From an uncultured Chloroflexia bacterium (GTDB lineage Bacteria; Chloroflexota; Limnocylindria; QHBO01), in contig CAVZPD010000009.1 in the NCBI GenBank assembly GCA_963777045.1, positions 139,583 through 203,582 of the forward strand: a DNA stretch of 64,000 bases, in the 5' to 3' direction. The stretch's first letter is position 1. The number at the start of each line of letters is the position of its first letter. The translations under genes and the position numbers were made by a program. The notes below the pieces were generated by a model. The model saw nothing but the letters and a program-made list of their open reading frames with translations. It was not told the origin of the DNA and did no database searches. This document shows positions 32,502-60,757 of the stretch, one piece after another.

Positions 32502-34082
<1,581 letters not shown>

Positions 34083-35833: not shown

Positions 35834-35846
35834 GTTTCACGTTCCC

Positions 35847-44142: not shown

Positions 44143-44161
44143 CGCAGCGTGCGGCGCGTCG

Positions 44162-44237
44162 TGGAGGGCCGTGTGGGATTCGAACCCACGACACGAGGAT
44201 TAAAAGTCCCCTGCTCTAACCACTGAGCTAACGGCCC
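44162..44237 (-). tRNA. tRNA-Lys (anticodon UUU)
   Basis: Minus-strand sequence GGGCCGTTAGCTCAGTGGTTAGAGCAGGGGACTTTTAATCCTCGTGTCGTGGGTTCGAATCCCACACGGCCCTCCA folds as a cloverleaf. Acceptor GGGCCGT/ACGGCCC, D-arm GCTC/GAGC, anticodon stem GGGGA/TCCTC with loop CTTTTAA, T-arm GTGGG-TTCGAAT-CCCAC, then discriminator T and CCA. Confidence 0.85.
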
Positions 44238-44240
44238 ACC
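44200..44240. repeat. att core copy A (within the tRNA-Lys 5' half, from anticodon loop to 5' end)
   Basis: TTAAAAGTCCCCTGCTCTAACCACTGAGCTAACGGCCCACC, identical to copy B over 41 nt and to copy C over 38 nt. Confidence 0.6.
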
Positions 44241-44354
44241 GATTCGTGCTCAGTTAGAGCACGTGATTCGAAGGAGACTTGACTACACCGTTCTTACAGC
44301 ACATGATTCGGCCGGTCTAGTCAACGCCAACGCCGCCGAATCTCCTGCTGTCAG

Positions 44355-45269
44355 ATGCCTACCAAACCAGCGACCCACGCTCACGCGAACCTCGACCTGG
44401 CCAATGCGGTCGGCTCCTTCACGCGCCATCTTAGGGCAGAGAATCTGGCACCCTCCACCGTGGCCACCTACGTGAAGGCGCTGAACCAGCTGCATACCTT
44501 CCTGGCAGGGAAGGGGATGCCGACCGACGTCGCCGCTGTCCGGCGCGAGCACCTCGAGGCCTTCCTCGTCGGCCTCCAGGACTCCGGCCACCGGCCGGCG
44601 ACGGTGGCCAACCGGTATCGGTCCCTCCAGCAAGTCTTCCGCTGGCTGGTGAACGAGGACGAGATCCGCGAGTCGCCAATGGCCCGCATGCGTCCACCGG
44701 CCGTCCCCGACGATCCGCCGCCGGTGCTGCGCACCGAGCAGCTCGAGCGCCTGCTGGCCGCCTGCGCCGGCACGTCGTTCGAGGAGCGCCGCGACACGGC
44801 CGTCATCCGCCTGCTGGCGTCGACCGGCATGCGTCGCGGCGAGTGCATCGGGCTGCGGGTCGAGGACGTCGACTTCGACCACGAGGTGGCGCTGGTGCTG
44901 GGCAAGGGCCGCCGCCCGCGGGCCTGCCCCTTCGACCGGCAGACCAGCCGCGCCTTGGACCGATACCTCCGCGTCCGCAAGCTGCACTTCGACGCCGATA
45001 CGCCCTGGCTGTGGCTCGGCAAGCGCGGGCGCCTGACCGATACCGGCCTCGCCCAGGTCCTCCGCCGCCGCGGCGCGGCTGCCGGCATACCGAAACTGCA
45101 CCCTCACCTCTTCCGCCACACCTTCGCTCACCAGTGGCTCGCTGATGGCGGCACGGAGGGCGACCTCATGCGCCTGGCTGGCTGGAAGTCGCGCGAGATG
45201 CTGTCCCGCTATGGAGCCTCAGCTGCCCATGAGCGGGCGCAGGAGGCCTATCGGCGGCTTCGCGGATGA
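44355..45269 (+). CDS. tyrosine-type site-specific recombinase/integrase (XerC/D-like)
   Basis: N-terminal SAM-like core-binding domain. Catalytic domain with R (LASTGMRRGE), HxxR (HLFRHTFA), conserved R and Y in LAGWKSREMLSRYGAS. Adjacent to tRNA-Lys. Confidence 0.85.
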   Translation: MPTKPATHAHANLDLANAVGSFTRHLRAENLAPSTVATYVKALNQLHTFLAGKGMPTDVAAVRREHLEAFLVGLQDSGHRPATVANRYRSLQQVFRWLVNEDEIRESPMARMRPPAVPDDPPPVLRTEQLERLLAACAGTSFEERRDTAVIRLLASTGMRRGECIGLRVEDVDFDHEVALVLGKGRRPRACPFDRQTSRALDRYLRVRKLHFDADTPWLWLGKRGRLTDTGLAQVLRRRGAAAGIPKLHPHLFRHTFAHQWLADGGTEGDLMRLAGWKSREMLSRYGASAAHERAQEAYRRLRG

Positions 45270-45289
45270 GGCGTCTGACCGTCCGATCC

Positions 45290-45970
45290 CTATGGTCGCG
45301 CAACCACCCGGCCGTCCTCGAGCCGAACCTGGCGCCCCATGCTCTCAGCCAGCTCAGCGTTGTGGGTTGCGATGACAAGCGAGTAGCCGTGCTGCTCTTG
45401 GAGTCCAAGGAGCAGTTGAACCACATCACGGCTAGTTCTCGAGTCGAGGTTCCCCGTCGGTTCGTCGGCCAGCACGAGATTGGGACTGGCGATCAGCGCT
45501 CGCGCGACGGCAACCCGTTGCTGTTCTCCGCCGGACAGCTCCGCGGGCCGATGTGTCAGCCGATTCCCGAGCCCGACCGATTCAAGCAGCTCAATCGCGC
45601 GGGGCTCGATCGCTGAGCGTGGAATGTATGGCATGAGCGGCAGGAGAACGTTATCGAGCGCGGTCAGCGCCGGCACGAGGTGAAACAGCTGGAAGACCAG
45701 GCCGATGCGGGTTCGCCGCAGGTCCGCCCGATCATCCTCGGACAGCAACGCGGCGTCTCCGGCCTCCACCAGGACGTGCCCTTCGTCTGGCACCTCGATG
45801 AGTCCGAGCAGCCCAAGCAGCGTGCTCTTGCCCGATCCGGATGGTCCCACCACCGCGATCTGCTCACCGCGACCCACGTTCAGCGATACGCCATCGATGG
45901 CGGTGACAGTTGTCTCGCCCTGCCCGTAGCGGCGGGTAACGCGGTCGAGGGTGATCAGTGCGTCGCTCAT
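45290..45970 (-). CDS. ABC transporter ATP-binding protein (MacB/LolD-type)
   Basis: [42 protein letters not shown]. Overlaps the upstream FtsX permease by 4 nt. Confidence 0.85.
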
Positions 45971-48900
45971 TTCCCCAACTCTCCAATCGTGGCCAGCACC
46001 CCCCGGGCGATGGCCGCGAGTTCACGCGGATCCGTCTGTTCCGGCGTATCGACGGATGTCCCCGCGACCGATGTGACGCCCTCTTGTGGATTGAGCGGCT
46101 CTCCCAGGTATGCCGCGTCGAGCCCCACCGCCAGGGCGTAGGCGTTGGCCGACAGCTCAGTCGATGGTTCCAGCGAGAGCGAATGGGACAGGAGATCGAG
46201 CAGTCCGGATGACGTCGGCCGGGCCTGCAGCACCTCACACCTCGCCAGCCAGCCGCCATTGTCGTCAAGCTCGACCGAGGACAACACACCGGCGCACGCG
46301 GCCCCCGCATCCAGATCGATGAACTCGGTCGTGCCCAGCACCGGGCTGACCTGTCCGCCCATCGGACCCAGGATGATGACCGGGGCGGGACGTTGCGCGA
46401 TCTCGCGCAGCAGGATCGAGATCGCACCCCCGGCTTGGGTGGTGGCGACCGCCACGTTGACCGGGATCTCACCCGCTGCGGCGTTGCGGGCGACCTCTAG
46501 CACAACGGCAACGCTTGCCGCGCTGGCGGTCGCGCCAGGCCCGGCAGTGTCGAGCCCGGCGACCAGCCATGGTGCGTCGTGCGCGCCCGATGTCGTGGCG
46601 ATCAACTGCTCGGCGGGTGGCAGCCGCAGGGCGGCCGCCGAGGCGAGCTGTCGCCAGGACTGATCGTCGGCGACCACTCCGAGCACCGCCTCGGTCGTCT
46701 CCGGGCAGCGCTCGAGAAGCTGGGAGGCGAGCGGAGCGCTCGCCTCGTCCGGCAGTCGCAGGACGACCACCTCGCCGCTGCATGCGGGGAGCACCCCGGC
46801 CGGCGCTTCCAGTGCGACGAAGGCGGACACCAGATCGCTTCCCGTCCAGCGTGACGAGCGGTAGGCAAGCGACACCGGCCACGCCGCGCCATCGATCCGT
46901 ATCGACTCCCCCGTCTCATCTCGGACGTCGAGGACGCGGGCCAGGTACCCAACTTCGCGCACCTCGTACCCGAGGTCGCTGAGTCGTTCGCCGACCGAGG
47001 CGAAGCTGTCGGCGAGCGCCTGGGAACCAATCATCCGGTCGTTGTGCTGGCTGATGGCCGCCACGTCCTTCGCCAGGCGCTGGACATCTGCCGGCTGCGG
47101 CGTTGGCGGCGGGGTGGTGGTGATCTCACTGGCCGCGATGCCGATCGGCGCAAACTGGCTCCACCCCACCGAGCCGGCCAGCACGGCGACGGCGAGCAGG
47201 CCGACGGTGAGCATCGCCTGCCGAACGGCAAGGCCGGGCAACGCCGTCGACGCCCCCTCGGCACGCAGAGTGGTGGCGGGGGCAACCCGCGCGACGAGCC
47301 CCACCGCTGGGCGCGTCGCCAGCCAGCCGACAGTGACGGCCACGAGGGCCGCCACTCCGGCCACGGCCAGCGATACGATCCCGAGCCCGAGCGCCAGTCC
47401 AAGACCGCCGATGAGCACCGCGGCCAGCACTGCAGCGCAGAGCGCCGGTAGCACGGCCTCGGCGAACACAAGCTTGCGCACCGGACCGGCACGCCAGCCC
47501 AGGGCGCGCAGCAGTCCCAGAGTGGCGAGTCGGCGCTCGACGGTGAGGAGGGCGTTGTCGAGCACCACCGCCCCCGCGGCGAACAGCGCCGCCGCAGCGC
47601 CGAGGAGGTGGTAGGGGGCGATTCGCAGCGCGACCACCTGTCCAAGCAGCGTTCCCCGCAGCGCACCGTTGAAGACCAGCTCGACCGTGGCAACGAAGCC
47701 GGCCAGGGTCACTGCCGCCACCAGCGCGATGGCGGTCCCCACGAACCGGAGGCGCGACTCGAGTGCCTGCGAAATGGCTAGGCCACGCATGCTGCCGACC
47801 GCGCGTCGGCCACCATCCACCGACCGTCCGCGCAGCGCGGCCGCGATCGGCCGCCGGGCGCCAAGGCCCCCAACGGTCAGGACTGACAGCAGGTGCGCGC
47901 CGAGGACAGCGCCCAGCAGGAGGCCGTAGGTCAGCCACCTATCAGTCGACCCTTGGTCAGGAGCCAGCGCCACGTAGGCAGCCACCGCGATGATCCCGGC
48001 ACCCAGACCGACCACGAGCGCCTGGCCAGCCAGCAGGGCAAGGACCGTCCGGCGACGCCAGCCAATGAGCCGCAAGGTCGACAGCTCCGCCGCCTGGTCT
48101 TCGACGAGCACCAGCGCGAAGGTGACGAGGTAGGCCAACGCCACCGCGACCGCACCCGCCAGCAGTACGCCCGACAAACCTGCGGCCCCCGACTCGATGC
48201 GCGGCGCCTCACCGAGCGTCGTCCAGCGCTCGCTGATGACGCCGAGGTCGGGCACCTCGACCTCCACGTCGGAAGCAGCGGCACCGGCCACCACGTCTAC
48301 CCGCAGCCCGGTGCGCTGGATGATCGACTGAGCCACATCTTCGACCCGGCTAATGGCCTGCGCGTCGTAACCGGTGACGTCCGCGACGCGCACCCGGATG
48401 GCGTCGATGAACCGCTCCCCGCGCAGGGCCTCCACAGCTTCGAGGTTCGTGAGTCCGATCGGCGGCAGCGGATTGATTCCGCCTGGATTGAGGGAAGCCG
48501 GCAACGGCTCGTCGGTGGCCTGACCGCCGGCCGTTTCCACCAGGTGACGGGGCGCCTCGCCGTAGATCCCAAGGGGCGCGTAGCTGGTGGCGGTCTCAAA
48601 CTCGGCGGCGATGGCGCGCAGATCGACGGTGCCGAGCGGCTGTAGGCTGAACGGCGGCGGCGTGGCGACGTCGAGCGGCCGGTAGATGAGTTCGTCGCGG
48701 CCATTGGCGAGGTTTGCCTCTCCCAGCGTGTAATCAGCCGCCGCGAGGCGCTCCAACTCCGGCAGCACGAGCGCATCCCATGTTCCAACCGGCTCCAGCC
48801 GCATGCGATCGTCGCTTGACTCCTGGTAAGGCGCCGGCTTCGGCACCAGCACCACGCTGCGCTCGATCCCCCACGCACCACCGTAGCTCGAGGCATCGGC

Positions 48901-49893
48901 GGTCAGGTTCCCCGAGGCGGTCAGCGCCAGACGCGGCTCACGCAGTGGAGTGAGCAGCTCATCCAGCGGCGCGGCGTCGGCGGCGACTGGGGTCGTCGCG
49001 GCCTCCTCGGCGAACTGTCGGATCACGCGCTGCTGCGCGGCCAGGTACGCCTCAACCGCCTCGCTATCGGCAGGCGGTGGGATGGCGTCCAGCGCGGCTT
49101 TCAAGGCGGCCGGCGTAACTCCGCTCAGGCGAAGGACGCTGACCTGAAGCGTGCCCGGCACCTCCGAGTGGGCTGCCGTGACGATCGGGACACCCACCGC
49201 CTCCCGTTGCAGCTGCTGGTCGAGGACGTGCGAGACGCCACGCGTCAGCCCGCGTCCGGCGATGAAGCGCTCGAGGCCGATCAGCTGGTCCTCGGCGATG
49301 GGGTCGATCCCCACCACCAACCCCCAGGTCGACGGGAGCTGGGCGAGGTCCAGGTTCAGGTCGCCGTTGCCAGAGTCGGCAGTGGTGCCCAGTCCAACCG
49401 ACAGTGGCCACGGACCGGCCTCTGGTGGACGCGCGAACGCGCCGACATGCGAGACGAGCCGCTCGCCGCCTACCGAGACCTCTACGTCGACGAGGTACAC
49501 GGTCTCGGTAGCAACATCCTGCAGTTCCACGCTAACCGGTGGACCGCCGTCAGTCATCCAGCCGAGGCTGGCCACCGGTGCGGCGACTTCAACGCCCGGG
49601 ATGGCCTGAATCGCCTCCCACTCGGCGCGACTGATCCCGCTGCCTCTGACGGACACGTAGTTCGCCGGGACCCGACCCTCCGCGCTCGCCTCGGTATCGG
49701 CGGGTCGAACCAAGATGTCGTAAGGGCCGCGCCAGCCAGCGTTGAGCTGCTGCTGGACCACGGCCAGGCTGGAGGTGGAAGCGATCAGCAGCGCGCTCGC
49801 CGCCAGGGCCACCGACACCGAGCCTGCGACGAGGACGACCAGCCGTCCGGGATTGGCACGCAGCAACTTGAGGCCGATCCACAGGGTGGACAC
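45967..49893 (-). CDS. very large FtsX-family ABC transporter permease (1308 aa) with two FtsX membrane domains and large extracytoplasmic regions
   Basis: N-terminal TM (LVVLVAGSVSVALAASALLIA), a long soluble region, a TM cluster around aa 560-700 and another at 800-900 with FtsX-like helices, then a C-terminal soluble domain. Operonic with the ABC ATPase. Confidence 0.7.
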   Translation of the reverse strand: MSTLWIGLKLLRANPGRLVVLVAGSVSVALAASALLIASTSSLAVVQQQLNAGWRGPYDILVRPADTEASAEGRVPANYVSVRGSGISRAEWEAIQAIPGVEVAAPVASLGWMTDGGPPVSVELQDVATETVYLVDVEVSVGGERLVSHVGAFARPPEAGPWPLSVGLGTTADSGNGDLNLDLAQLPSTWGLVVGIDPIAEDQLIGLERFIAGRGLTRGVSHVLDQQLQREAVGVPIVTAAHSEVPGTLQVSVLRLSGVTPAALKAALDAIPPPADSEAVEAYLAAQQRVIRQFAEEAATTPVAADAAPLDELLTPLREPRLALTASGNLTADASSYGGAWGIERSVVLVPKPAPYQESSDDRMRLEPVGTWDALVLPELERLAAADYTLGEANLANGRDELIYRPLDVATPPPFSLQPLGTVDLRAIAAEFETATSYAPLGIYGEAPRHLVETAGGQATDEPLPASLNPGGINPLPPIGLTNLEAVEALRGERFIDAIRVRVADVTGYDAQAISRVEDVAQSIIQRTGLRVDVVAGAAASDVEVEVPDLGVISERWTTLGEAPRIESGAAGLSGVLLAGAVAVALAYLVTFALVLVEDQAAELSTLRLIGWRRRTVLALLAGQALVVGLGAGIIAVAAYVALAPDQGSTDRWLTYGLLLGAVLGAHLLSVLTVGGLGARRPIAAALRGRSVDGGRRAVGSMRGLAISQALESRLRFVGTAIALVAAVTLAGFVATVELVFNGALRGTLLGQVVALRIAPYHLLGAAAALFAAGAVVLDNALLTVERRLATLGLLRALGWRAGPVRKLVFAEAVLPALCAAVLAAVLIGGLGLALGLGIVSLAVAGVAALVAVTVGWLATRPAVGLVARVAPATTLRAEGASTALPGLAVRQAMLTVGLLAVAVLAGSVGWSQFAPIGIAASEITTTPPPTPQPADVQRLAKDVAAISQHNDRMIGSQALADSFASVGERLSDLGYEVREVGYLARVLDVRDETGESIRIDGAAWPVSLAYRSSRWTGSDLVSAFVALEAPAGVLPACSGEVVVLRLPDEASAPLASQLLERCPETTEAVLGVVADDQSWRQLASAAALRLPPAEQLIATTSGAHDAPWLVAGLDTAGPGATASAASVAVVLEVARNAAAGEIPVNVAVATTQAGGAISILLREIAQRPAPVIILGPMGGQVSPVLGTTEFIDLDAGAACAGVLSSVELDDNGGWLARCEVLQARPTSSGLLDLLSHSLSLEPSTELSANAYALAVGLDAAYLGEPLNPQEGVTSVAGTSVDTPEQTDPRELAAIARGVLATIGELGK

Positions 49894-49919
49894 AGTCGTT
49901 TCCCTCCCTCTTGCCTTCG

Positions 49920-50570
49920 TCAGCGACGGCCAGCGAGACCCTGGGTCAGGCGTGCAGCAACGAATCCCAGGCCGAGCAAGACGATGGCGTACGGAAGCAT
50001 GGTCAGTGCCGCCGCGCCGAGGCCCGGCTCCGAGCCGGCGTCAGCTCGCGGACCTCCCGCAAAGGGTGACCATACGAGCGTGCCGCCCCGCGAATCCGCT
50101 CCCCGCAGTGCGGGCGTCGCCTCGCGGATTACTCGAGCACCCGCGGGTGTGGCCTGAACGGTCACTGGTTGGAATGGATCCGCCAGCCGAGCTCGGGTGT
50201 CGAGCATGCTGCCAATGGCGGCGACACTGGCGACAAAGACGGCTGCGGCGCCCAGTAATGCGAGCACCGCACCCGCAACCGGCAGGCGCCGAACGTGTGG
50301 CGCCGGGGCGGCGGGCAACGGCGCCTGGCTCCCGGTCATTGCCGGCTCCGATTCGCGGAAGGAGGCCAGGAGCGCGACCCGCCCGCTCACGCCCAGCTTG
50401 AGGTAGATGTGCGACAGGTGCGACCGCACCGTCGCTTCAGTCAGAGAGAGCCGCTCCGCGATCTCGCGGGCGGGCAGTCCGCTGAGCGCCTCGTCGAGCA
50501 CCGCCTGCTCTGCCGGAGTCAGGCTCGAGAGCTGCGCGTACAGCGGCTCGTTCGTCCCTTCACTGTCCAT
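49920..50570 (-). CDS. LuxR-family HTH regulator fused to a C-terminal membrane domain
   Basis: N-terminal LTPAEQAVLDEALSGLPAREIAERLSLTEATVRSHLSHIYLKLGV (LuxR/GerE HTH). The C-terminal half has two hydrophobic helices. 26 nt upstream of the FtsX gene. Confidence 0.55.
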   Translation of the reverse strand: MDSEGTNEPLYAQLSSLTPAEQAVLDEALSGLPAREIAERLSLTEATVRSHLSHIYLKLGVSGRVALLASFRESEPAMTGSQAPLPAAPAPHVRRLPVAGAVLALLGAAAVFVASVAAIGSMLDTRARLADPFQPVTVQATPAGARVIREATPALRGADSRGGTLVWSPFAGGPRADAGSEPGLGAAALTMLPYAIVLLGLGFVAARLTQGLAGRR

Positions 50571-50637
50571 CGGGTTGTTCCTTGATGTTCGCTCGTCTTC
50601 CAGTCTCGCTCCAGGGGCGTGACGACGCATCCGGCAT

Positions 50638-50672
50638 ACCGATGAATCACGTCCTCAGTTCCGATGAATCCT
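50638..50672. promoter_or_regulatory. direct repeat CCGATGAATC x2 upstream of the LuxR-FtsX-ABC operon
   Basis: TACCGATGAATCAC and TTCCGATGAATCCT, 21 nt apart, 70-100 nt upstream of the LuxR-like start. Candidate operator. Confidence 0.3.
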
Positions 50673-50870
50673 CTGCTGGACGATGGGCGCGAGCTTGCTT
50701 CTGGCGGAAGTGCCGAAGGTCACGCCGCCGGTCAACGGGACGATCCAATCGCTGCGCGTAGCGTCGTGCAGGGATCGCCGCATCGTCTCTCATGAGGCAG
50801 GAACGAGACGTACACCGAGCTGTACACAACTTCCCTTGTTTCGACACGTCCTGCCCCATAGGGTTGTCGA

Positions 50871-51194
50871 ATGCCGATGCGCGTGACTCCGACCCGCCTA
50901 CGCGATGAGCTGACCGAGCTCTGGTTGCGTGCGTCCGCTGGCGAGCATCTTGTCGCGGCGGGCGCCCACCAGACGCCGGTTCTCATTCGCCCCGTGCGCC
51001 CGCGCGACCACGGTACGCGGACCGGTCTCACCGTCTTTCGGCGACAGCTTCATCGCATCCTGCGCCAGGCCGCTCAGGAGCCGGTGATCGTCACCGTAGT
51101 CGGTGATCCGATACTGTGGCTCGGTCCGACGACCGCTCCCCCGGCAGGCTCCGGGCCAGAGCGGCCCGTTGGGCACCGTCGTCGGAGGCTGTGA
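50871..51194 (+). CDS. hypothetical protein with two Phd/YefM-antitoxin-like segments
   Basis: MRVTPTRLRDELTELWLRASAGEHLVAAGAHQTPVLIRP and GLTVFRRQLHRILRQAAQEPVIVTVVGDPILWLGP both fit the (s)v(s)..lR.nL...l..v..Ge.v.iT..G.pvavL.p pattern. First of three translationally coupled genes. Confidence 0.3.
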   Translation: MPMRVTPTRLRDELTELWLRASAGEHLVAAGAHQTPVLIRPVRPRDHGTRTGLTVFRRQLHRILRQAAQEPVIVTVVGDPILWLGPTTAPPAGSGPERPVGHRRRRL

Positions 51195-51481
51195 TGGGAC
51201 GGCGTGGGGGCCGCTCCAGCCCATCCGAGCGTGCGCTGCGAGGCCGCATCGGTGCGCATCTGCTGCACGCCACGCACGACTCCCGGCGCCTGACCGAGAA
51301 GGCTCGCGCCACGTTCATGGCGAGCTTCGAGCGGCAGGTCGATCCGGATCGCAGCTTGCCGGCTGACGAGCGTCGGCGGCGGGCGACCCATGCGCGGGCT
51401 GCGCACTTCGCACGCCTTGCCAGGATGAGCAGTCTGGCACGCGCCCAACGCAAGCGTCGTGCCCGTCGCGGCGGGGGATGA
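51191..51481 (+). CDS. hypothetical basic protein
   Basis: GTGA overlap with the upstream gene and ATGA overlap with the downstream gene. Arg-rich C-terminus (ARAQRKRRARRGGG). No recognisable motif. Confidence 0.3.
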   Translation: MMGRRGGRSSPSERALRGRIGAHLLHATHDSRRLTEKARATFMASFERQVDPDRSLPADERRRRATHARAAHFARLARMSSLARAQRKRRARRGGG

Positions 51482-52440
51482 TGGTCGCGTCCAGGCAGGC
51501 CCGCACCCGGCGGTCGGCGCCCATCGGGCCGCCAGGCATGAACGCCTGGCCGGCGCTACCAGTCCGTGATCAGCGGCTCATCGCGTGGCTGTGGGCCGGC
51601 GACGTCGTGAACTCGGAGCTGGCGGCCGTGCTCGCGTATGGCAGCCTCCGCATTGCTCAGCGACGGCTGTCGCGCCTCGTCGAATACGGGATCCTGCGCG
51701 GCTTCTGGGCGGGAAACAGCCAGCGGCCCCGCGGGCGATACGCGTACGTTCTGACGAAGAGCGCCCGCAAGGATCTCGGGTTTCTTCTCTGGGAGCACTC
51801 GCAGCCGGAGCTGGCGGACGATCAGCTGCAGGCCCCCTCGCCGGTCATCCACCAGCTCGCGACCCACGATCTCCTTGCCGCCTTTCTGCGCGCCTCGCCG
51901 CTGACCGACGAGATTGGCCTCGCTGCGTGGGTCCCGGAACATGCCGCCACTGTTCCTTACCGCGGCGTGCAGCGTCCCGATGCAATAGCCCTCGTTCGGC
52001 GCGGTCACGAGGGCGCGTTGCTGATCATCGAGCGCGACATGGGCAGCGAGCGCCACGAGATTCTCATCCGGAAGTTGGAGCGGTACAGGTTCACACGGAT
52101 TCACCCGGTGGGGACGAACCTGGGTTTCATTGTCGAAGGTTCCCGCCGCGCCGGTGCATTGCGGGTCTCGTTGCGTCGTGCCCAGGACCGATGGCACAAC
52201 CGGGGCAACCAGGAGGACCTCGCGTGCTGGATTACCACCGGCGCTGACCTGCGCGACGATCCGTTCGGCGCGGTGTGGCGCTCGCCCGACGGGCGCGAGG
52301 CGACAGTCCTGGACATGCCTGCCATCGAGTTGCCCGCGCCCCTGCCGATCCTGTCCCCGCCGGCTCTCCTCGACGACGAAGCCGAGGGCGCGCTGGACGA
52401 TCGAGCCCTGGCCATGGTTGGCTGGGGCCGCCGCCGCTAG
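51478..52440 (+). CDS. replication-relaxation (Replic_Relax)-like protein, plasmid/ICE-associated
   Basis: N-terminal wHTH-like region (LIAWLWAGDVVNSELAAVLAYGSLRIAQRRLSRLVEYGILRGFW...RYAYVLTKSARKDLG), then a larger domain. A diverged copy of its last ~14 codons recurs at 55180-55222. Confidence 0.4.
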   Translation: MMVASRQARTRRSAPIGPPGMNAWPALPVRDQRLIAWLWAGDVVNSELAAVLAYGSLRIAQRRLSRLVEYGILRGFWAGNSQRPRGRYAYVLTKSARKDLGFLLWEHSQPELADDQLQAPSPVIHQLATHDLLAAFLRASPLTDEIGLAAWVPEHAATVPYRGVQRPDAIALVRRGHEGALLIIERDMGSERHEILIRKLERYRFTRIHPVGTNLGFIVEGSRRAGALRVSLRRAQDRWHNRGNQEDLACWITTGADLRDDPFGAVWRSPDGREATVLDMPAIELPAPLPILSPPALLDDEAEGALDDRALAMVGWGRRR

Positions 52441-52481
52441 GTCGTTCCACCCTGTCAAGAGCCCTTCGGTAGCATGGGAGC

Positions 52482-52892
52482 ATGCGGATGCCGAAACCAC
52501 GCAAGGATGGGGAATGGTCCTCGGTTCCCCCGTCGCCAAGAGACGCGGCGCCCGGCGTCCATCCTGGACTGAGTCGTCCCGACCCGGCGGTGGAGTCCCT
52601 CGTCAAGGAGATCCTCGATCCGGTGCTGGTCCCGCTCGGCTTTGGCCCGGGGCAGCTCGGCGGAGACGGAGAACACGCTCAGGCGATCTACTGCCGGGGC
52701 GAGATGGACACTCCGGATGGTGGGTGCGTGGATCTCGTCCTTGATCTCGAAGCGGCGCCCGATTGGCAGATCACCGATGTGCGCTACTGGGGGTTCCCTG
52801 TCGACCGCTGGCACCTCGACGTCGACCGAGGTGCTCAACTTGCGGATCAGCTCGCCGGCCTGGCTCAGAGCCTGCCCACCGAGCTGTCATAG
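52482..52892 (+). CDS. hypothetical protein
   Basis: 136-aa ORF with coding GC3 bias inside the element. No motif recognised. Confidence 0.3.
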   Translation: MRMPKPRKDGEWSSVPPSPRDAAPGVHPGLSRPDPAVESLVKEILDPVLVPLGFGPGQLGGDGEHAQAIYCRGEMDTPDGGCVDLVLDLEAAPDWQITDVRYWGFPVDRWHLDVDRGAQLADQLAGLAQSLPTELS

Positions 52893-53215
52893 ATGCCACG
52901 GGCGCTTGCGGCTCGTGAGCCCCATAGGGGTCGCGCCAGCCTTGCTCGTCCTCCCGGCGACCTACTTTGCTTGCCGAACACGAGAGTCCCGATCTCTGGC
53001 GCCGAGCGATTGAAGGGGCCACTGCCACTCGCCGTCGAGCGCTGTCACGCTGCGGAACGCGTCCCTGTCACCCCGCTGTTCGAGAGCCGCGAAGCCGTCC
53101 CGCACACGGATGCGTCAGTTTCGCAAGCTCAATCCTGCCCATTGTCGAACCCCGACATCTCTAGAGATTCGCGCGCCTGCGCCCGGGCCGCTCAGCAGCG
53201 GAGCGGTGATGTGGG

Positions 53216-53851
53216 TCACGGCCAAGCTGGCGCATCCTCTGGAGACACCTGCTCAACGTCGTAGGCGCTTGGCCCGCTCGAGACGTACCGGTCTTCGTCG
53301 ACCTCCTCGAGCCGAATAGGGTCTCTGGCCGGGTCGACGCGGCTCCAGTAACGCGCGAGTTTGATCTTCAGCTGGCGTCGCGCTTCCTGATGCAACTGCG
53401 CCACTCGCCGTGGCGGGTCTCGAAGCGTCGCATCGTCAACCAGACTCGGCCGGTAAAGACACGCCACAAGCGCCTCATCGAGCAGCCCAGGAACCGGCGG
53501 CAGGTACATGTATGGATGCACAGAGTCACGAGCCTCGATCAAGCTCAGGTTCTGGCGCTGGCCGGGGGTTCTCTCGGCCACCAGCGCCAGTGGGAGGACA
53601 GGTACGAGGACTCGGTAGGGATGCGATGGCTCTCCGCTGCGCTGATCGATCATGTCGCAGGTCGGAGTTACCAGCAGCCCGTAGCCGTACTGCACTTCAC
53701 CGACGAAGTGCTTTCCCGAGCCCTCCTCATCGACGAGCATGACGGTTGGCTGGTCGAGAAACGGGATGGCCGCGAAGAGGTCGCCAGCGAAGAGAATCGA
53801 CGACCAGTTGGGGACCCAATACTGATCGTCACTCGGCCTGAATACGGTCAT
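53216..53851 (-). CDS. hypothetical protein (211 aa), cargo of element 1
   Basis: Downstream of the Xis-like HTH gene on the same strand (75-nt gap). No recognisable family (…DEEGSGKHFVGEVQYGYGLLVTPTCDMID…). Confidence 0.35.
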   Translation of the reverse strand: MTVFRPSDDQYWVPNWSSILFAGDLFAAIPFLDQPTVMLVDEEGSGKHFVGEVQYGYGLLVTPTCDMIDQRSGEPSHPYRVLVPVLPLALVAERTPGQRQNLSLIEARDSVHPYMYLPPVPGLLDEALVACLYRPSLVDDATLRDPPRRVAQLHQEARRQLKIKLARYWSRVDPARDPIRLEEVDEDRYVSSGPSAYDVEQVSPEDAPAWP

Positions 53852-53926
53852 CGCCCTCCCCTCTGCGTCGCCCCATCGTATGGGCTGTGACGCAAGGAGG
53901 AGGGCGGTTTGCGACTGTGGGCGAAC

Positions 53927-54160
53927 TTAGTCGTCGATCGGTTCAGCCGAGACTCTGGGCAGCTCCTCAGCATCCAGGCTGGCGAAACCGGTGAACATCT
54001 GAGCCCGCATACGCTCGATGTCCTCCGATCGGAATCGACGAACGCCACTTGGGAGTCGGACAGCCCGGATGAACCCCTTCTCCTCCCAACGCCTAAGCGT
54101 GTTCTCATGCACGCCAAGTCCGTGGGCGGCCTGACGTACTTGCATTAGGGACATCGCCAT
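53927..54160 (-). CDS. MerR/excisionase-family HTH DNA-binding protein
   Basis: MSLMQVRQAAHGLGVHENTLRRWEEKGFIRAVRLPSGVRRFRSEDIERM is a canonical Xis/MerR-type HTH. Lower GC (~58%). Confidence 0.5.
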   Translation of the reverse strand: MAMSLMQVRQAAHGLGVHENTLRRWEEKGFIRAVRLPSGVRRFRSEDIERMRAQMFTGFASLDAEELPRVSAEPIDD

Positions 54161-54192
54161 CTCCTTCCCATCTGGCAATGTGAGTGTGCAGC

Positions 54193-54244
54193 CGATGGTA
54201 GAGCTTGTCAACTGTAGCGAGATGGTAGACTTGGTGAACTATTC
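54193..54244. promoter_or_regulatory. tandem ~25-nt direct repeat in the divergent promoter region between the Xis-like gene and the low-GC membrane protein gene
   Basis: GATGGTAGAGCTTGTCAACTGTAGC then GATGGTAGACTTGGTGAACTATTCG. Likely operator sites for the adjacent HTH protein. Confidence 0.35.
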
Positions 54245-54264
54245 GTACCAGCGCGTGGTGCGTT

Positions 54265-54972
54265 ATGGATGTCGTTAACTGGTTGAACACCAACAGCGGA
54301 GCTGTGATTGCCGCTCTCACGTTGGTGTACGTCGTCTTCACCGGCGCCCTCCTGTTGGAGGCCCGGTCGAGTCGCCTGGAGAAACTCTCCGCGTCGGTCG
54401 AGGCGTACCCCATGATCCACGAGATTGCTCATCTCTATCTCGCTGGTCGGATTGAGAACGGCGGGCCGGCCTACGCCCGCGATATCAGCTGGGACGTGCG
54501 GCTCCTCGAGAACGGACAGCTGGTGGACGAGGACCGCAGCTATAAGCAGCCACTCATGGCCCCGGGCCGCCATCGCACGACGATGCTGCATCCCCGTGGC
54601 AAGCAGGCAACGCTGAAGGCTCTCGCTGACCGAGGGTTCACCGTAGAGATGACTTGGTCGTGGACAGACGGACGTCATCGATTCGGGGTCGGTCCTCGGA
54701 AGCGGCATCAGCGCAGCGAGGTTTGGGATTTTGCCGCCCTTCGAGACGGGTTCTACAAGGGCTCCGTCATGGTTGAGACGCCGGTGGATGTGAAGCTGGC
54801 GAACACGCTCGACCCCATCCGCAAGGCCGCTGACGAGATCCCGCGGATCGGCAGCGAGCTGCGATCCCTCCGCTATTTCATTGAGAGCCGAATCGATCAC
54901 GATGGGATCGAACAGCCGGAGTCGGCGAGCATGCCGCTGATGGCGGGCAGCGACGACCCCGCTGCGGAGTAG
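54265..54972 (+). CDS. hypothetical membrane-anchored protein, low-GC cargo
   Basis: 235 aa with N-terminal TM (AVIAALTLVYVVFTGALLL). ~53% GC versus ~70% flanks. No known motif. Confidence 0.4.
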   Translation: MDVVNWLNTNSGAVIAALTLVYVVFTGALLLEARSSRLEKLSASVEAYPMIHEIAHLYLAGRIENGGPAYARDISWDVRLLENGQLVDEDRSYKQPLMAPGRHRTTMLHPRGKQATLKALADRGFTVEMTWSWTDGRHRFGVGPRKRHQRSEVWDFAALRDGFYKGSVMVETPVDVKLANTLDPIRKAADEIPRIGSELRSLRYFIESRIDHDGIEQPESASMPLMAGSDDPAAE

Positions 54973-55094
54973 CTCGGAATCCCCTGCTGTGAGGCCATTG
55001 TTGTGCTGTCGCCGGAGGGCCCGATAGAGCAGGGGATTCGGCCGATTACGCACGACTTCCACCCTCGGCGACCACAGCGTTAGGTGGGTCTGAC

Positions 55095-55135
55095 TTAAAA
55101 GTCCCCTGCTCTAACCACTGAGCTAACGGCCCACC
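55095..55135. repeat. att core copy B (junction between elements 1 and 2)
   Basis: 41-nt identity to the tRNA-Lys 5' half. Followed, like copy A, by the GTGCTCA(A/G)TTAGAGCAC hairpin and GA(T/C)TCGAAG motif. Preceded by a ~100-nt arm shared with copy C. Confidence 0.6.
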
Positions 55136-55170
55136 GTCTCGTGCTCAATTAGAGCACGTGACTCGAAGAA

Positions 55171-55236
55171 GGCTTGTCGATGATCGCGCGCTCGCGATGG
55201 TCGGCTGGGGCGGCCGCCGCTAGGTTGTTCCGTCCG
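55171..55236 (+). pseudogene. remnant of the 3' end of a Replic_Relax-like gene
   Basis: GATGATCGCGCGCTCGCGATGGTCGGCTGGGGCGGCCGCCGCTAGGTTGTTCC aligns (~80% identity) with 52393-52450, which encodes ...LDDRALAMVGWGRRR* at the end of the 51478..52440 gene. The track ORF 55174..55518 covers this region in a different frame. Confidence 0.4.
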
Positions 55237-55352
55237 TCACGAGTCCACTTTGGACTCCCGCGGCATTGTGGCCTCCCAAGTAATTGGACTTATCCGCGTT
55301 ATCTTGCATTATCCTTGCTATCCGCTATACTGACTCTTAGCGCGCGAAGGAG

Positions 55353-55637
55353 TTGGCCGTGGACGTCCAGTTTGAGAAGAAGGCCTTCTACAGCCCGGCA
55401 GAGGTTTCGGAGTTGTTTGGCGTCCATCCCTCCACCGTTCGGGATTGGATCCACTCCGGCCATCTCCCGGCCTTCCAACTGTCTGAACGCATCTATCGCG
55501 TGCCGCTCGGATCAGTGATGGGGCTTCTCCACGAGACTCAAGGGGTGACGCGCAATACGCCCACGGCCGAGCAGGCCGAGCGCGTATGGGATGAGGTGGA
55601 AGCCGAGCACCAGCAGCCGGCAGCCACGCGCGTGTGA
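55353..55637 (+). CDS. excisionase/MerR-family HTH DNA-binding protein (Xis-like)
   Basis: FYSPAEVSELFGVHPSTVRDWIHSGHLPAFQLSERIYRVPLGSV is a canonical Xis-type HTH. Confidence 0.55.
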   Translation: MAVDVQFEKKAFYSPAEVSELFGVHPSTVRDWIHSGHLPAFQLSERIYRVPLGSVMGLLHETQGVTRNTPTAEQAERVWDEVEAEHQQPAATRV

Positions 55638-56089
55638 TTCGGCTGCGGCCGCAGCCGTTCGATCAGCGCATCGCAACCGCCGAGGTCGCCTTTCGCGGCC
55701 TCGGTTACGTTCACATCGCGGATCCAGGCCCGATTCCGGGGACGCCCCGGACCATCAGCATCGGCATCGACCATCCGGGGTGGGGCCTCCCGACAGCGGC
55801 GCGCCTTGAGTTCGTGGAGCGCTGGGTCTTCTCTGGCGGGACATGGGAATTGACCAAGTACGCCTACGAGTTGCGGGCGGTGCCCGGACCCAGCCGGCTC
55901 GCCTTCCACTGGCACAATGGCCTCCACCACACGCATTGCGTCGATCCGAACCACCCGGCTCGCGCGCACCACTTCCAGGGTGGCCCAGTCGACCTGTTCG
56001 CTGCGTACCAGACCTTCGGTCGCTTGCTGGCATCCGGCAGCCTGATCAGCTGCCAGGGCCTGACTCCGCTACCCGGGCCAGGAGCCTGA
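55634..56089 (+). CDS. hypothetical protein
   Basis: GTGA overlap with the Xis-like gene. 151 aa, His/Trp-rich (HWHNGLHHTHCVDPNHPARAHHFQG). No family recognised. Confidence 0.3.
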   Translation: MIRLRPQPFDQRIATAEVAFRGLGYVHIADPGPIPGTPRTISIGIDHPGWGLPTAARLEFVERWVFSGGTWELTKYAYELRAVPGPSRLAFHWHNGLHHTHCVDPNHPARAHHFQGGPVDLFAAYQTFGRLLASGSLISCQGLTPLPGPGA

Positions 56090-56289
56090 TCACTCAGCCT
56101 AACCGAGGCGATGCGCATAGGCTTGAGCCCTTCATCGGTCATGGCGGCGCAACGGCCACAGGAGATCCGCACGCGGTTGAGCGACACGCTCAGCCGACGC
56201 CCGAACGGCCGTGGAGTCTCACTCCGGACGTTGTCCTCTTCGACAGATCTGGCGAAACAGCAGAGGCGTCTGCGAGCATCTGGACAGAC

Positions 56290-56820
56290 ATGGAAGACGC
56301 CGTCGTCGGGCACACCGACCCATTGGTAGGGCGGGTGAAGGCCGGGGACACGGAGGCATTCACCGACCTCGTGTCCCGGTACGGCCCCGATGTCCTGCGG
56401 CTGTGCATGGTGGTCACCGGCGAAGCCATGGCCGCCGAGGATGCTGCGCAGAACGCCTGGCAGCGCGTCTGGCGCCGCATCGGCACGCTCCGAGATCCGG
56501 GACGCCTGCGCCCATGGCTGCTCAGGGTCGCCGCCAACGAGGCGAAGCAAGTGATGCGGCGCAACCGACGCCAGGCGGCCAGCAGCCTCGATCTGGCGGG
56601 CGAGGTTGGTGACGGGGCGACAACGGCCGATGCCGATTTGCGCGCCACGCTCGCGGGGCTCGATGCCGGCGACCGAGAGCTGCTCGCCTACCGCTACGTG
56701 CTGGGGCTGACCTCCGAGGAGATCGGCCGGCAGCTGAGACTGTCCGGTGAGGGAGTTCGCAGCCGCCTGAAGCGCCTGCGCGACCGCCTCGCCAAGGAGA
56801 TGACTGACGATGTTCGCTGA
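56290..56820 (+). CDS. RNA polymerase ECF sigma factor
   Basis: Sigma-2 (TEAFTDLVSRYGPDVLRLCMVVTGEAMAAEDAAQNAWQRVWRRIGTL) and sigma-4 (LDAGDRELLAYRYVLGLTSEEIGRQLRLSGEGVRSRLKRLRDRL). Confidence 0.75.
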   Translation: MEDAVVGHTDPLVGRVKAGDTEAFTDLVSRYGPDVLRLCMVVTGEAMAAEDAAQNAWQRVWRRIGTLRDPGRLRPWLLRVAANEAKQVMRRNRRQAASSLDLAGEVGDGATTADADLRATLAGLDAGDRELLAYRYVLGLTSEEIGRQLRLSGEGVRSRLKRLRDRLAKEMTDDVR

Positions 56821-57466
56821 TCACCCCTCCGACGACCTCGACCCCCGGTTCGTCGGCCGCCTGCGCGCGTTCGCCGACGAGCCACTGGCCACCTTCGATC
56901 CCGTGCGGGTGGTGGCCGGCGCGGCGACCACCCCTCGTCGAATCGGACCGATCGTGCGTTTCGCCGCGGCCGGCTTGGCCGCTGCGGCGGTGCTGGTCGC
57001 CGCGCTGGTGCTGAGCGCCCAACCAACGGTCCCGCCGTCCACCGGCAGCGGATCGGCCCAGGCGATCGCCGCCGACCAGTCGTTCCCGGCGGACTACCTT
57101 GTCAGCAGCGGCTGGCGACCGATTGAATTGAGTGGTCCCAGCGGAAGTTTCGCTTCCGTCGACGATGCGGTACACCGCCTGCGCACCTACTTCGCGGCCG
57201 GCGTGCGGCCGGTGAGCGAGGACGCGGTGACGATTACGGTGCCTTCATTGAGCGCAATGACCAAGGATGTCCGAGTCTTCGTCCAGATCCTGGGCGGCAC
57301 GAACCCGAAGCAGTCCGGCGACCAGTTCCGGGTCTGGCTGCGTCGTTCCGGTGATGCATGGCACATCGACGCCGCGGCCGAGGCCCAGATCTTCTGCCGA
57401 GCACCGCTCAGCACGCCCGCTGCTGCTGGCCACAGTGACTACGCCGGCGGCGGTCTCTGCTACTGA
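56810..57466 (+). CDS. single-TM membrane protein overlapping the ECF sigma gene (putative anti-sigma factor)
   Basis: Overlaps the sigma stop by 11 nt. ~60-aa cytoplasmic N-terminus, TM (IVRFAAAGLAAAAVLVAALVLSA), then a ~135-aa extracytoplasmic domain. Confidence 0.4.
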   Translation: MFADHPSDDLDPRFVGRLRAFADEPLATFDPVRVVAGAATTPRRIGPIVRFAAAGLAAAAVLVAALVLSAQPTVPPSTGSGSAQAIAADQSFPADYLVSSGWRPIELSGPSGSFASVDDAVHRLRTYFAAGVRPVSEDAVTITVPSLSAMTKDVRVFVQILGGTNPKQSGDQFRVWLRRSGDAWHIDAAAEAQIFCRAPLSTPAAAGHSDYAGGGLCY

Positions 57467-57596
57467 TCTCGGTGCCGGAGTCCCCTGTTGTCGGGCGATT
57501 ATTGTGCTGTTTGCCGGTGCCGTCATAGAGCAGGGGATTCGGCCGATTGCGCACGATCTTCCACGCTCGGCGACCACAGCGTTACGTGGGCCTGAC

Positions 57597-57634
57597 TTAA
57601 AAGTCCCCTGCTCTAACCACTGAGCTAACGGCCC
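57597..57634. repeat. att core copy C (right end of the tandem array)
   Basis: 38-nt identity to the tRNA-Lys 5' half, preceded by the arm shared with copy B. Downstream sequence diverges (chromosomal flank). Confidence 0.6.
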
Positions 57635-57770
57635 GTCGAGGTCGCGGTACAGCATAGGGCGTTGGACCGGGCACCTTCCCCGGGCCGATACTCGGCATCC
57701 CGCAGCTCCCACTGCGCCGCAGCTGACCGATCGGTACCATGCGATCACCTACCGAGAGGCGCCCCATCTG

Positions 57771-58439
57771 ATGACGGACATGTCCAGCCAGCGCGGCGCG
57801 GCTGGCGAGCAGGCCGCCCCCGTCGAGGCGGGGCCTCCAGTGCGCGAGCCGATGAAGACGCTTGCAAACTGCGATCGGATCGTCGTCGTGGGCCGCACCG
57901 GATCGGGCAAGACCACGCTCGCGCGCGAGCTGGCCGCGATCCTGGGAGTCCAGCACGTGGAGCTCGACGCGCTCTACTTCGGCCCCGAGTTCAGCACAGC
58001 CCCGCTGGAGGTCCTGCGCGAGCGGACGAGCGCGGCGATCGCCGGTGAACGGTGGGTGACCGACGGCAACAAACGCGCGGTCCGCGACCTCGTCTGGCCC
58101 CGGGCCGATACGATCGTCTGGCTCGACTACTCGGTTGGCGTCAGCCTGTGGAGGCTCGGCAGACGCGCTCGGCGACGCACGGCACAGCTGAGCACCGAGG
58201 CTGCAAGGACCGGCCGCCGCCGCGCCCTGCCCCGTCAGCTGCTGGCCGCGGCGCGAGGAGTCCTCACCGCGCTCCGATCCCACGCTGGCCAGCGCCGCGA
58301 GTACACGCGGCTATTGGCCGACCCCGCGAACAGCCACCTGGCGGTCGCCCGCCTCCGCTCGCCACGCGCCACGCGCGAGTGGCTGTCCAGGGTATCTGCG
58401 GCAGGGACCGCCGCGCCGGATCAGACGGCTCCCTCGTAG
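57771..58439 (+). CDS. P-loop NTPase (AAA / adenylate-kinase-like, topology-modulation-type)
   Basis: Walker A VVVGRTGSGKTTLAREL near the N-terminus. The start may be the internal Met at 57852. Confidence 0.45.
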   Translation: MTDMSSQRGAAGEQAAPVEAGPPVREPMKTLANCDRIVVVGRTGSGKTTLARELAAILGVQHVELDALYFGPEFSTAPLEVLRERTSAAIAGERWVTDGNKRAVRDLVWPRADTIVWLDYSVGVSLWRLGRRARRRTAQLSTEAARTGRRRALPRQLLAAARGVLTALRSHAGQRREYTRLLADPANSHLAVARLRSPRATREWLSRVSAAGTAAPDQTAPS

Positions 58440-59557
58440 ATGCGGTAGGTCTTGTAGCGCTTCGCACCGACTGCGGTGATGGCACGGTTGACACGCTCGT
58501 TGTCGTCGAGCGTCCAGCCCATCTCGCAGCCCGTGTAGCCGGCCTTCACCGCCTCGTGCATGGTGCGCAGAACCATGGCCTCGGCGATCCCACGGCCTTG
58601 GAAGCCCGGCAGCACCCCCAGCGCGAAGTAGCGGAAGGTCTTGATCCGCCGCAGGCCCAGCAACAGCCGGACCACACCGATGGGCAGGAAGCCCCACCGC
58701 ACCAGGCGGCCGTCGCCAACCGTGCGGAAGGCCTCGTTGGCATCGGGCAGCGAGAGGCTGAATCCGATCGGCTCGCCATCCTTCTCGGCCATCACCAGCA
58801 GGTTCTCGTCGGCGATCTCGGCCAAGTGCCTGCCAAGGTCGTCGAACTCCGCATCGGTCATGCGGACGGAGCCCCAGTTGTCGTACCAGGCCTGGTCGTA
58901 GATGACCTTGGCCTTCTCGACCTCCGCGGCCAGGTGCTTCTTGCTGATCGAGCGCAGCGTGATGCCGCGCCGCGCGATCCGATCCGCGCGGGCGAGCCAG
59001 GGACGCAGGTCGGGTGCCTGGTCGATCCACCATGCGTAGAGCTCCTTGACGGAATGGAGTCCGTAGCCCTCGAGCAGCGGCCGGTAGTAGGGCGGGTTGT
59101 GGTTCATGAGGAGCCGCGGTGGGGTATCGAATCCGTCGACTAGGAGCCCGCAGGTGTAGTTCGTGGAGTACTCGACCGGCCCCAGCATCGCGGTCCGGCC
59201 GCGCGCCCGCAGCCAGCCGCCGGCGGTGTCGAGCAGCGCCTGCGCGACCTCCGCATCGTTCACCGATTCGAAGAGGCCGAACGTCCCCACGTTCGTTCCG
59301 TGCCGCTCGTTGTAGTGCGGGTCGTCGCTGGCGAGAATCCGGCCCACGACCTCCTCACCGCGTCGGGCGAGGAATGTCTGCGCGGCGCCGTGACGGTAGA
59401 ACGGGTGCTTGTCGCGGTCCAGGAAAGCGTGGACCTCGCGGCGGAGCGGAGGAACCCAGGCGGGGTCGTCGGCGTAGATGCGCCAGGGGAGCGAGATGAA
59501 CGCTTCGAGGTCCCGGCGCCCGTCGACGCTGCTGACCTGGACCTTCGGCTGCGTCAC
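58421..59557 (-). CDS. GNAT-fold acyl-CoA N-acyltransferase family protein (378 aa)
   Basis: The C-terminal region LGVLPGFQGRGIAEAMVLRTMHEAVKAGYTGCEMGWTLDDNERVNRAI resembles the GNAT acetyl-CoA binding motif (Q/RxxGxG/A). The N-terminal domain is uncharacterised. Confidence 0.45.
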   Translation of the reverse strand: MTQPKVQVSSVDGRRDLEAFISLPWRIYADDPAWVPPLRREVHAFLDRDKHPFYRHGAAQTFLARRGEEVVGRILASDDPHYNERHGTNVGTFGLFESVNDAEVAQALLDTAGGWLRARGRTAMLGPVEYSTNYTCGLLVDGFDTPPRLLMNHNPPYYRPLLEGYGLHSVKELYAWWIDQAPDLRPWLARADRIARRGITLRSISKKHLAAEVEKAKVIYDQAWYDNWGSVRMTDAEFDDLGRHLAEIADENLLVMAEKDGEPIGFSLSLPDANEAFRTVGDGRLVRWGFLPIGVVRLLLGLRRIKTFRYFALGVLPGFQGRGIAEAMVLRTMHEAVKAGYTGCEMGWTLDDNERVNRAITAVGAKRYKTYRIYEGAV

Positions 59558-59604
59558 GATGCAGCGGCGACCCCTGCGGTGCGGCGATCGCGGAAGGATA
59601 CCGG

Positions 59605-60708: not shown

Positions 60709-60757
60709 GCCACTCTCGCAGCAAGCGGGGTGCCGGGGGGTGCTAGGCTCCGATTTG

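Follow-up and report, generated by a model that had tools for sequence, protein, structure and literature searches.

Recombination of integrative elements with the 5' part of a tRNA gene has been called 'considerably less frequent' in PMC6563490, which refers to Zhao & Williams 2002 and to several archaeal examples, and for islands that displace 5' tDNA PMC6563490 and PMC1635311 cite Zhao & Williams 2002. Among the 3919 islands in Islander, 159 carry a 5' fragment and 3760 a 3' fragment, so that the former make up ~4% (PMC4383910, Table 1); anticodon-centred sites, the commoner of the two site classes, account for 2083 of the 3919, and 125 tandems are recorded (PMC4383910). PMC7192596 deals with tandem arrays and how they arise. 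Here we describe a locus in a soil Chloroflexota (Limnocylindria-type) genome. The window, by which we mean the whole 64-kb stretch of DNA analysed, contains a 13.4-kb segment (44200-57634) that is very probably a tandem array of two related integrative elements in a tRNA-Lys(UUU) gene. The original prediction for this DNA had called targeting of the 5' half rarer than targeting of the 3' end, in agreement with PMC4383910 (~4%) and PMC6563490.

The repeats, their arms and the tRNA gene

The only tRNA gene in the window is tRNA-Lys(UUU), called by ARAGORN at 44162-44237 on the minus strand. An Rfam scan agreed (72 bits), and between 43 and 61 kb it returned nothing else. A 41-nt sequence is present in exact form at 44200-44240 (copy A) and 55095-55135 (copy B). 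Copy C, at 57597-57637, has 2 mismatches, both in the last 3 nt and beyond the tRNA 5' end. The number of such repeats expected by chance was 0 (100 shuffles of the window), and no fourth repeat was found in the window with 3 mismatches allowed. The repeat consists of tRNA nt 38 to 1 plus three upstream bases, and it starts at the exact 3' edge of the 7-nt anticodon loop (TTAAAAG, that is, loop CTTTTAA). Copy C is identical over the 38 tRNA bases, and its divergence sets in precisely where the tRNA 5' end lies. Both 5' fragments (55095 and 57597) have the same orientation as the tRNA and lie on its upstream side, which places the element on the 5' side of the gene. The original prediction of three tRNA 5'-half repeats at 44200, 55095 and 57597, each running from the anticodon loop to the tRNA 5' end, was therefore correct in both respects, the latter by the ARAGORN and Rfam placement.

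Copies A and B have a common right flank, which together with the core aligns over 82 nt at 93% identity. Copies B and C have a common left flank of ~120 nt (162 nt at 88%, core included), somewhat longer than the ~100-nt arm that had been predicted. Alignment of the three repeat regions, and a five-way alignment that included a related locus, gave the pattern attL for A, attP-like for B and attR for C. The junctions thus align as those of a tandem array, as the proposal of two insertions at the same tRNA had implied; the alignment is neutral as to the order of insertion. We refer to 44200-55094 (10.9 kb) as element 1 and to 55095-57596 (2.5 kb) as element 2. The sites are as follows.

44162-44237, minus strand: intact tRNA-Lys(UUU) (ARAGORN; Rfam tRNA, 72 bits)
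44200-44240, no strand: core copy A (attL core); the anticodon loop, probable region of strand exchange, is at 44200-44206
44238-44354, plus strand: int-proximal arm of element 1; hairpin at 44246-44262, AGCAnnnGATTCG at 44258 (+), 44298 (+) and 44337 (-)
54975-55094, plus strand: distal arm of element 1; inverted motif pair at 54976 (-) and 55028 (+)
55095-55135, no strand: core copy B, tRNA 5' half only; attP-like, with the element 1 distal arm to its left and the element 2 proximal arm to its right
55136-55246, plus strand: truncated proximal arm of element 2 and remnant of a Replic_Relax 3' end; hairpin at 55141, one motif site at 55153
57476-57596, plus strand: distal arm of element 2; one exact motif site at 57529, partner site degenerate
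57597-57634, no strand: core copy C (attR core), the displaced original tRNA 5' half; identity ends at the tRNA 5' end
57635-57700, minus strand: non-element flank of copy C with a TANNNT-type -10 (TATGCT), found by sequence comparison; putative promoter

The arms contain several features of their own. As predicted, the hairpin GTGCTCAnTTAGAGCAC follows copies A and B; it occurs only at 44246 and 55141 (expected 0.02). The GATTCG repeats are part of a 13-nt motif, AGCAnnnGATTCG. The window has five exact copies of it, every one of them in an arm, besides two more arm copies that have one mismatch, and the motif is significant within the window. Counted from the tRNA 5' end, the element 1 sites are at +21, +61 and +100 (inverted), and the distal arm holds an inverted pair. 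These positions are the same in every locus of the Lys-UUU subfamily. More distant subfamilies have another word, TAACTG-like, in the same arm layout, and this co-variation of arm word and subfamily suggests a specific protein partner. The prediction that the GATTCG repeats may be arm-type integrase sites was borne out as far as the repeats and their motif are real; the integrase itself has no arm-binding domain, and that role for the repeats is unproven. The core-binding domain begins at residue ~21 of 304, which leaves no room for an arm-binding domain of the lambda type. The motif may be bound by a small HTH_17 (helix-turn-helix) protein or by the integrase core-binding domain itself.

A conserved promoter-like site directed at int, TTGACT-17-CATGAT, lies at 44279-44307, and the +61 motif site overlaps its -10. 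A 12-mer, TAGAGCAGGGGA, which corresponds to tRNA nt 20-31, is found in inverted form 65 nt to the left of cores B and C (expected 0.13), with exact copies at 55025-55036 and 57526-57537. The hairpins at 44246-44262 and 55141-55157 resemble a D-arm with a shortened loop. The inverted 12-mers and the D-arm-like hairpins could be fossils of earlier captures, or they could be extra binding sites of the core type.

Insertion polymorphism and the integrase family

That the repeats are element boundaries is supported by loci at which the insertion varies. Locus L044, on a contig of a metagenome-assembled genome, has genes in common with both outer flanks of the window and is syntenic with it. There, a single 5.5-kb element lies between the same tRNA and a 42-nt 5'-half repeat, and its arms are 90-95% identical to those of the window. 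When metagenome contigs were scanned for the intact tRNA, 14 matched, and an element arm or int was absent from all of them. In four of these (L082, L088, L093 and L094), the tRNA is uninterrupted and 45-150 nt separate its 5' end from a homologue of the proline dehydrogenase gene that, in the window, starts at 60758, 16.5 kb from the tRNA. The original prediction would have been refuted by an arrangement without indel polymorphism that formed part of a larger duplicated tRNA region; the relatives show the opposite.

An identical integrase protein is encoded at locus L001, on a second assembly contig. Over 8.1 kb at this locus the tRNA and element 1 show 99.7% identity, against only 87-90% for the chromosomal flanks. 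To the left of the tRNA, other genes (Crp- and GerE-type) stand in place of the giant gene. A near-identical element 1 in a diverged genome points to ongoing gene flow among Limnocylindria. The L001 contig ends at 17901 (window 52256), inside the Replic_Relax gene, and the assembly may have broken where element variants differ. A search of viral contigs for the B-type, or attP, junction gave 0 matches.

Relatives of the integrase number in the thousands, and we surveyed the best 80 genome loci. Nearly all were in metagenome-assembled genomes of Limnocylindria or other Chloroflexota, with a few in Actinomycetota. In 77 of these 80, a tRNA gene was located within a few hundred bases upstream of int. 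The orientation was reversed at 66 of the 77, with the tRNA on the opposite strand and its 5' end facing int, and usual at the other 11. Reversed loci used Lys-UUU, Lys-CUU, Gly-UCC, Met, Pro, His, Arg and Asn tRNAs. When up to 10 kb of flank per locus was searched for the displaced half, 10 reversed loci had a displaced copy of tRNA nt 1 to 37-40, and four loci of usual orientation had a copy from nt 31-32 to the 3' end. The anticodon loop is the only segment common to both kinds of repeat, and strand exchange needs identity, which argues tightly for an exchange within the loop.

A circular relative points the same way. The IMG/VR contig at locus L099 (1-9828) has a 127-nt terminal overlap, consistent with a circle of ~9.7 kb, and encodes an integrase 65% identical to ours. 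ARAGORN found no tRNA in it, and an exact copy of tRNA-Met nt 1-40 is located just upstream of int. By its position, this 5' half beside int is evidently a free attP. Together with the same identity block at the 10 other loci, it gives good support to the predicted crossover in the anticodon loop with regeneration of the 5' half. Genes for an HNH nuclease and for a major capsid protein of the HK97 type are present on the same contig, and they indicate that the integrase family serves several kinds of small mobile element; the contig itself has the look of a small satellite or mini-phage that encodes a capsid. In a rough neighbour-joining tree, loci of usual orientation were scattered among reversed loci, and the orientation appears to have switched several times.

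Other loci of the family are also complex. At L008, the 3' half of a tRNA-Lys (nt 29-76, 90% identical) is repeated 6.2 kb downstream (3570-3617 and 9776-9851), and a reversed-type integrase is present on the 5' side of the same tRNA, so different elements seem to use the two halves of a single tRNA gene. A few kb downstream, L028 (10026-10881, 13464-14195), L076 (16948-17144) and L022 (12530-13049, 20199-20718) have either another copy or a fragment of the integrase or duplicated Replic_Relax homologues, which suggests that tandem or nested arrays are common in the family.

We propose that the attP of each element would comprise tRNA nt 1-38, the anticodon loop and some of the DNA that precedes the tRNA. 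The XerC/D-like integrase would exchange strands in the 7-bp anticodon-loop sequence, between the inverted arms of the anticodon stem. The chromosomal 3' half would then be joined to an element-borne 5' half to give copy A, a working gene, and the original 5' half would be displaced with its own promoter to the far end, as copy C. Copy B would be the junction of the two elements and would have the structure of an attP. On this model the tRNA is a hybrid, with nt 39-76 (44162-44199) from the chromosome and nt 1-38 (44200-44237) from element 1.

After such an integration the working tRNA gene no longer adjoins the promoter that it had originally. At uninterrupted loci a TANNNT element precedes the tRNA by 7-17 nt, and elements of this type are kept in the flank of copy C (TATGCT, 17 nt upstream of the orphan 5' half) and at the L044 attR. 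The first ~25 nt of the element 1 arm are homologous to native DNA upstream of tRNA-Lys in some relatives: L092 reads CTGAGGACGAATCGGC where the arm reads CTGAGCACGAATCGGT, and the position of the native TATCCT is occupied by TCTAACT in the arm. Candidate promoters for the hybrid tRNA that we picked by eye, such as TCTAACT at -14, were judged unconvincing. In the model, the element arm would drive the hybrid tRNA. This is the weakest step of the model, which assumes that copy A is expressed.

A wider pattern may be proposed tentatively, as less likely than not. A large clade of XerC/D-like integrases in Limnocylindria and other Chloroflexota, some Actinomycetota and viral contigs would target the anticodon loop and mostly carry the tRNA 5' half, and hence would systematically replace host tRNA promoters. 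Orientation would have flipped several times, the symmetric stem-loop allowing the capture of either half. The five-site arm motif, which partly mimics the D-stem and anticodon-stem, might be bound by the integrase core-binding domain in place of an arm-binding domain.

Genes of the elements and alternative readings

Element 1 is a complete element, with a promoter-like site, int, a candidate excisionase, a Replic_Relax gene, and transporter and regulator cargo. Its only integrase gene (44355-45269) is also the only one in the array, as had been predicted, and it starts 118 nt from the tRNA 5' end. Pfam places a SAM-like core-binding domain at residues 21-102, preceded by only 20 residues, and the catalytic domain at 124-291. 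Residues R160, K184, H251, R254, W277 and Y286 are invariant across the family alignment. By sequence, the closest solved relatives are XerD and XerA. The protein is 41% identical to the integrase of Streptomyces phage Kromp and ~34% identical to those of cluster-E-type mycobacteriophages. Scores against the NCBIfam equivalogs TIGR02224 (156 bits, cut-off 335) and TIGR02225 (148 bits, cut-off 330) are far under the cut-offs, and we rejected a role as a genuine XerC/XerD dimer resolvase. Element-borne and next to a tRNA att site, the gene is that of an integrase rather than of a chromosome-dimer resolvase. The genes of both elements are listed here.

44355-45269, plus strand: tyrosine integrase, XerC/D-like, 304 aa (PF00589, 4.6e-29)
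45290-45970, minus strand: cargo, ABC transporter ATPase (PF00005, 9e-31)
45967-49893, minus strand: cargo, large FtsX-type permease, open reading frame (ORF) of 1308 aa (PF02687; gene call in L001)
49920-50630, minus strand: cargo, LuxR/GerE-type regulator (PF00196, 2.7e-13)
50871-52440, plus strand: conserved module of a small ORF (50871-51194) and a Replic_Relax protein (51478-52440; PF13814)
53927-54211, minus strand: MerR/HTH_17 small protein, 94 aa (PF00376, 35.5 bits; PF12728, 33.7 bits; both above cut-off)
55353-55637, plus strand: excisionase-family HTH_17 protein of element 2 (PF12728, 9.5e-11; TIGR01764, 32.4 bits, above cut-off)
55843-57466, plus strand: cargo of element 2, extracytoplasmic function (ECF)-type sigma-70 ORF (55843-56820; sigma domains at residues 176-316), then an ORF of 218 aa (56810-57466)

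The module at 50871-52440 has 76% nucleotide identity with the single element of L044. The MerR/HTH_17 protein, which the original prediction had not mentioned, is a candidate excisionase or regulator of element 1. Several further ORFs of the element have no family match, and the G+C content at 53-56 kb is 0.61-0.63, compared with ~0.70 for the window. An ORF at 45266-45616, after int, was rejected as a gene; it overlaps the ABC ATPase gene on the opposite strand and has no family match.

Domain searches and sequence comparison found no recombinase domain or int remnant in element 2 (55095-57596). Its att sites are related to those of the co-resident, integrase-coding element 1. A previously unreported internal homology bears on its origin. 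The segment 55179-55246 matches 52396-52464 of element 1 (69 nt, 81% identical), that is, the last codons of the Replic_Relax gene and the bases downstream. In the simplest reading, this fusion of arm and Replic_Relax end is a deletion scar, with the promoter, int and rep lost, and element 2 would be a deletion derivative (from the arm to the end of rep) of a complete sister element. 'Integrase-less deletion derivative' is a more fitting name for it than 'second autonomous element'. Two of the three motif sites of its proximal arm are deleted, which argues for reduced competence. Element 2 would be mobile only by means of the element 1 integrase acting in trans, or by joint excision through recombination between copies A and C.

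The sigma domains of the element 2 cargo ORF are confined to residues 176-316, so its true start is probably later, and the 218-aa ORF is a possible anti-sigma partner. The sigma factor has 46-50% amino acid identity to an ECF sigma factor in the int-bearing element at L096, which belongs to the same subfamily, and an exact-protein look-up of it found no record. An ECF sigma gene with an adjacent large ORF recurs as cargo in the subfamily (L096, 8982-10953; window, 55843-57466), and these elements may import regulatory modules.

One refinement of this explanation, rather than an alternative to it, is that the 13.4 kb now form one composite element, in which copy B is an inert scar, element 2 has decayed, and recombination occurs only between A and C or between A and B. 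The losses just described (the promoter-like site, int and two motif sites, those at +61 and +100) are what it would lead one to see, as are a mismatch in the remaining proximal motif site and a degenerate distal site. Against it, outside the core the arms of element 2 are still ~83-85% identical to those of element 1, core B is perfect, and the excisionase-family ORF is intact. We regard this reading as doubtful, if well within reach. A more radical reading takes the repeats as products of a segmental duplication of the tRNA region, or of chance homology, and not as integration boundaries. Nothing favours it beyond the presence of the repeats, and it would have to account for a repeat restricted to the 5' half, with the anticodon loop and the tRNA 5' end as its precise limits, for an integrase that adjoins copy A, arms that pair as attL, attP-like and attR, empty and single-element sites in related genomes, and the same architecture at six or more tRNA species in the integrase family. 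These data already contradict it, and we consider it hardly credible.

The array could also be larger. Between copy C and the proline dehydrogenase gene are 3.1 kb (57638-60757), again absent from the original prediction, with genes for a P-loop kinase-like protein, a GNAT acetyltransferase and a bacterial eRF1-like protein (baeRF/acVLRF1). This segment could be a third, older island with an eroded distal tRNA fragment, which would make copy C an internal junction. The tRNA lies directly beside the proline dehydrogenase gene at L082, L088, L093 and L094, L044 has only 0.58 kb there, and none of the three genes has a homologue in any fetched locus. However, the search that allowed 3 mismatches gave no fourth repeat, no arm sequences occur to the right of copy C, and the flank of copy C has the -10-like TATGCT seen at native sites. 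The G+C content at third codon positions (GC3) is 0.86-0.90 in these genes, which is host-like, versus 0.70-0.83 in the elements. A third island is unlikely in our estimate, and we treat the segment as lineage-specific chromosome because of its host-like codon G+C and the lack of an att remnant.

Several results weigh against the tandem array of two elements, or against parts of it. A sigma-70 consensus scan of the element arm on the tRNA strand gave no promoter, the only site being the one directed at int. The relatives that supplied the uninterrupted loci are not of the same species, with only ~72-76% identity in their flank proteins. The exact predicted attB (the intact tRNA followed by 7 nt from the flank of copy C) had 0 matches in metagenome contigs, and exact junction searches revealed neither an excised circle nor a restored attB of this element. 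The genes of 57638-60757 are absent from the uninterrupted relatives, and with no relative for these 3.1 kb in any fetched locus, the native status of the copy C flank depends only on its promoter-like resemblance. The repeats are identical throughout their tRNA part, so polymorphism does not map the crossover. The tandem array of two elements nonetheless seems to us the best explanation: we observed directly the repeats with their arms, the genes, the insertion polymorphism, the near-identical copy at L001 and the orientation that prevails in the family, and we infer the crossover position, the promoter source of the hybrid tRNA, the arm-motif binder and any present-day activity.

The surroundings are variable as well. 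An exact-protein look-up of the P-loop protein on the right flank, with two start choices, found no record. On the 3' side of the tRNA, the window has ~17 kb (27067-44162) that is extra in comparison with L087 and L044, where the homologue of window 26.2-27.06 kb is close to the tRNA. This region includes a gene (37054-44142) for a surface-type protein of 2362 aa with CBM96, Big_5, beta-helix and Metallophos domains. A canonical island to the left of the tRNA was considered and rejected, as a search there for a second 3'-half repeat found none. The tRNA-Lys gene looks like a hotspot that is variable on both sides.

Relation to known systems

Through this analysis, 13.4 kb of the genome can be annotated as DNA that was mobile recently, including an ABC exporter with a LuxR regulator and an ECF sigma factor. 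It also offers a well-resolved bacterial case of 5'-half tRNA integration, complete with the attP of a circular relative and with empty sites. If the family pattern holds, the family would be a natural system for studying how the transcription of a host tRNA comes under the control of an element, and how a recombinase that has no arm-binding domain integrates directionally. Our paper search for Limnocylindria in combination with integrase and tRNA found no report.

With regard to its recombinase, the locus resembles the 'simple' recombinases of the XerC/XerD type and the small actinobacteriophage integrases, which have two domains, ~300 aa and no arm-binding domain. It differs from XerC/XerD in scoring far under the equivalog cut-offs (156 vs 335 bits) and in being element-borne beside a tRNA att site. 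Actinomycete integrative and conjugative elements (AICEs) such as pSAM2 and SLP1 offer another parallel: like them, element 1 is ~10 kb long, has a high-G+C host, integrates in a tRNA gene and combines int with an xis-like gene and a replication-relaxation module. No FtsK/SpoIIIE-like translocase (Tra) was found in the ORFs of either element with Pfam, NCBIfam or PHROGs, and for want of a Tra/FtsK-like gene we rejected classification as an AICE or as conjugative.

Accretion of the CIME/ICESt type is the concept that covers integrase-less, cis-mobilizable elements in tandem arrays. The present array has the shared regenerated cores and the attP-like internal junction of arrays with such remnants, and element 2, which has no integrase and whose att sites are related to its neighbour's, fits the description. 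Unlike these remnants, it keeps an excisionase-family gene and has a visible deletion scar, and its mobilization in trans is hypothetical. Under Islander rules element 2, having no int, is not a separate island.

The closest match is with the 5'-fragment tRNA islands. As in those, a tyrosine integrase lies beside the regenerated tRNA, the 5' part is displaced, the site is in the anticodon loop, and the element must supply the 5' half together with whatever drives its transcription. The locus is a clear example of this already catalogued, minority kind and leaves current concepts unchanged. It differs from the known 5'-fragment islands in its host, an uncultured Chloroflexota (Limnocylindria) lineage, and in that the reversed orientation is the majority in its integrase family (66/77 loci) and not the exception. 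What may be new is the scale, with the reversed mode as the rule within one integrase family.

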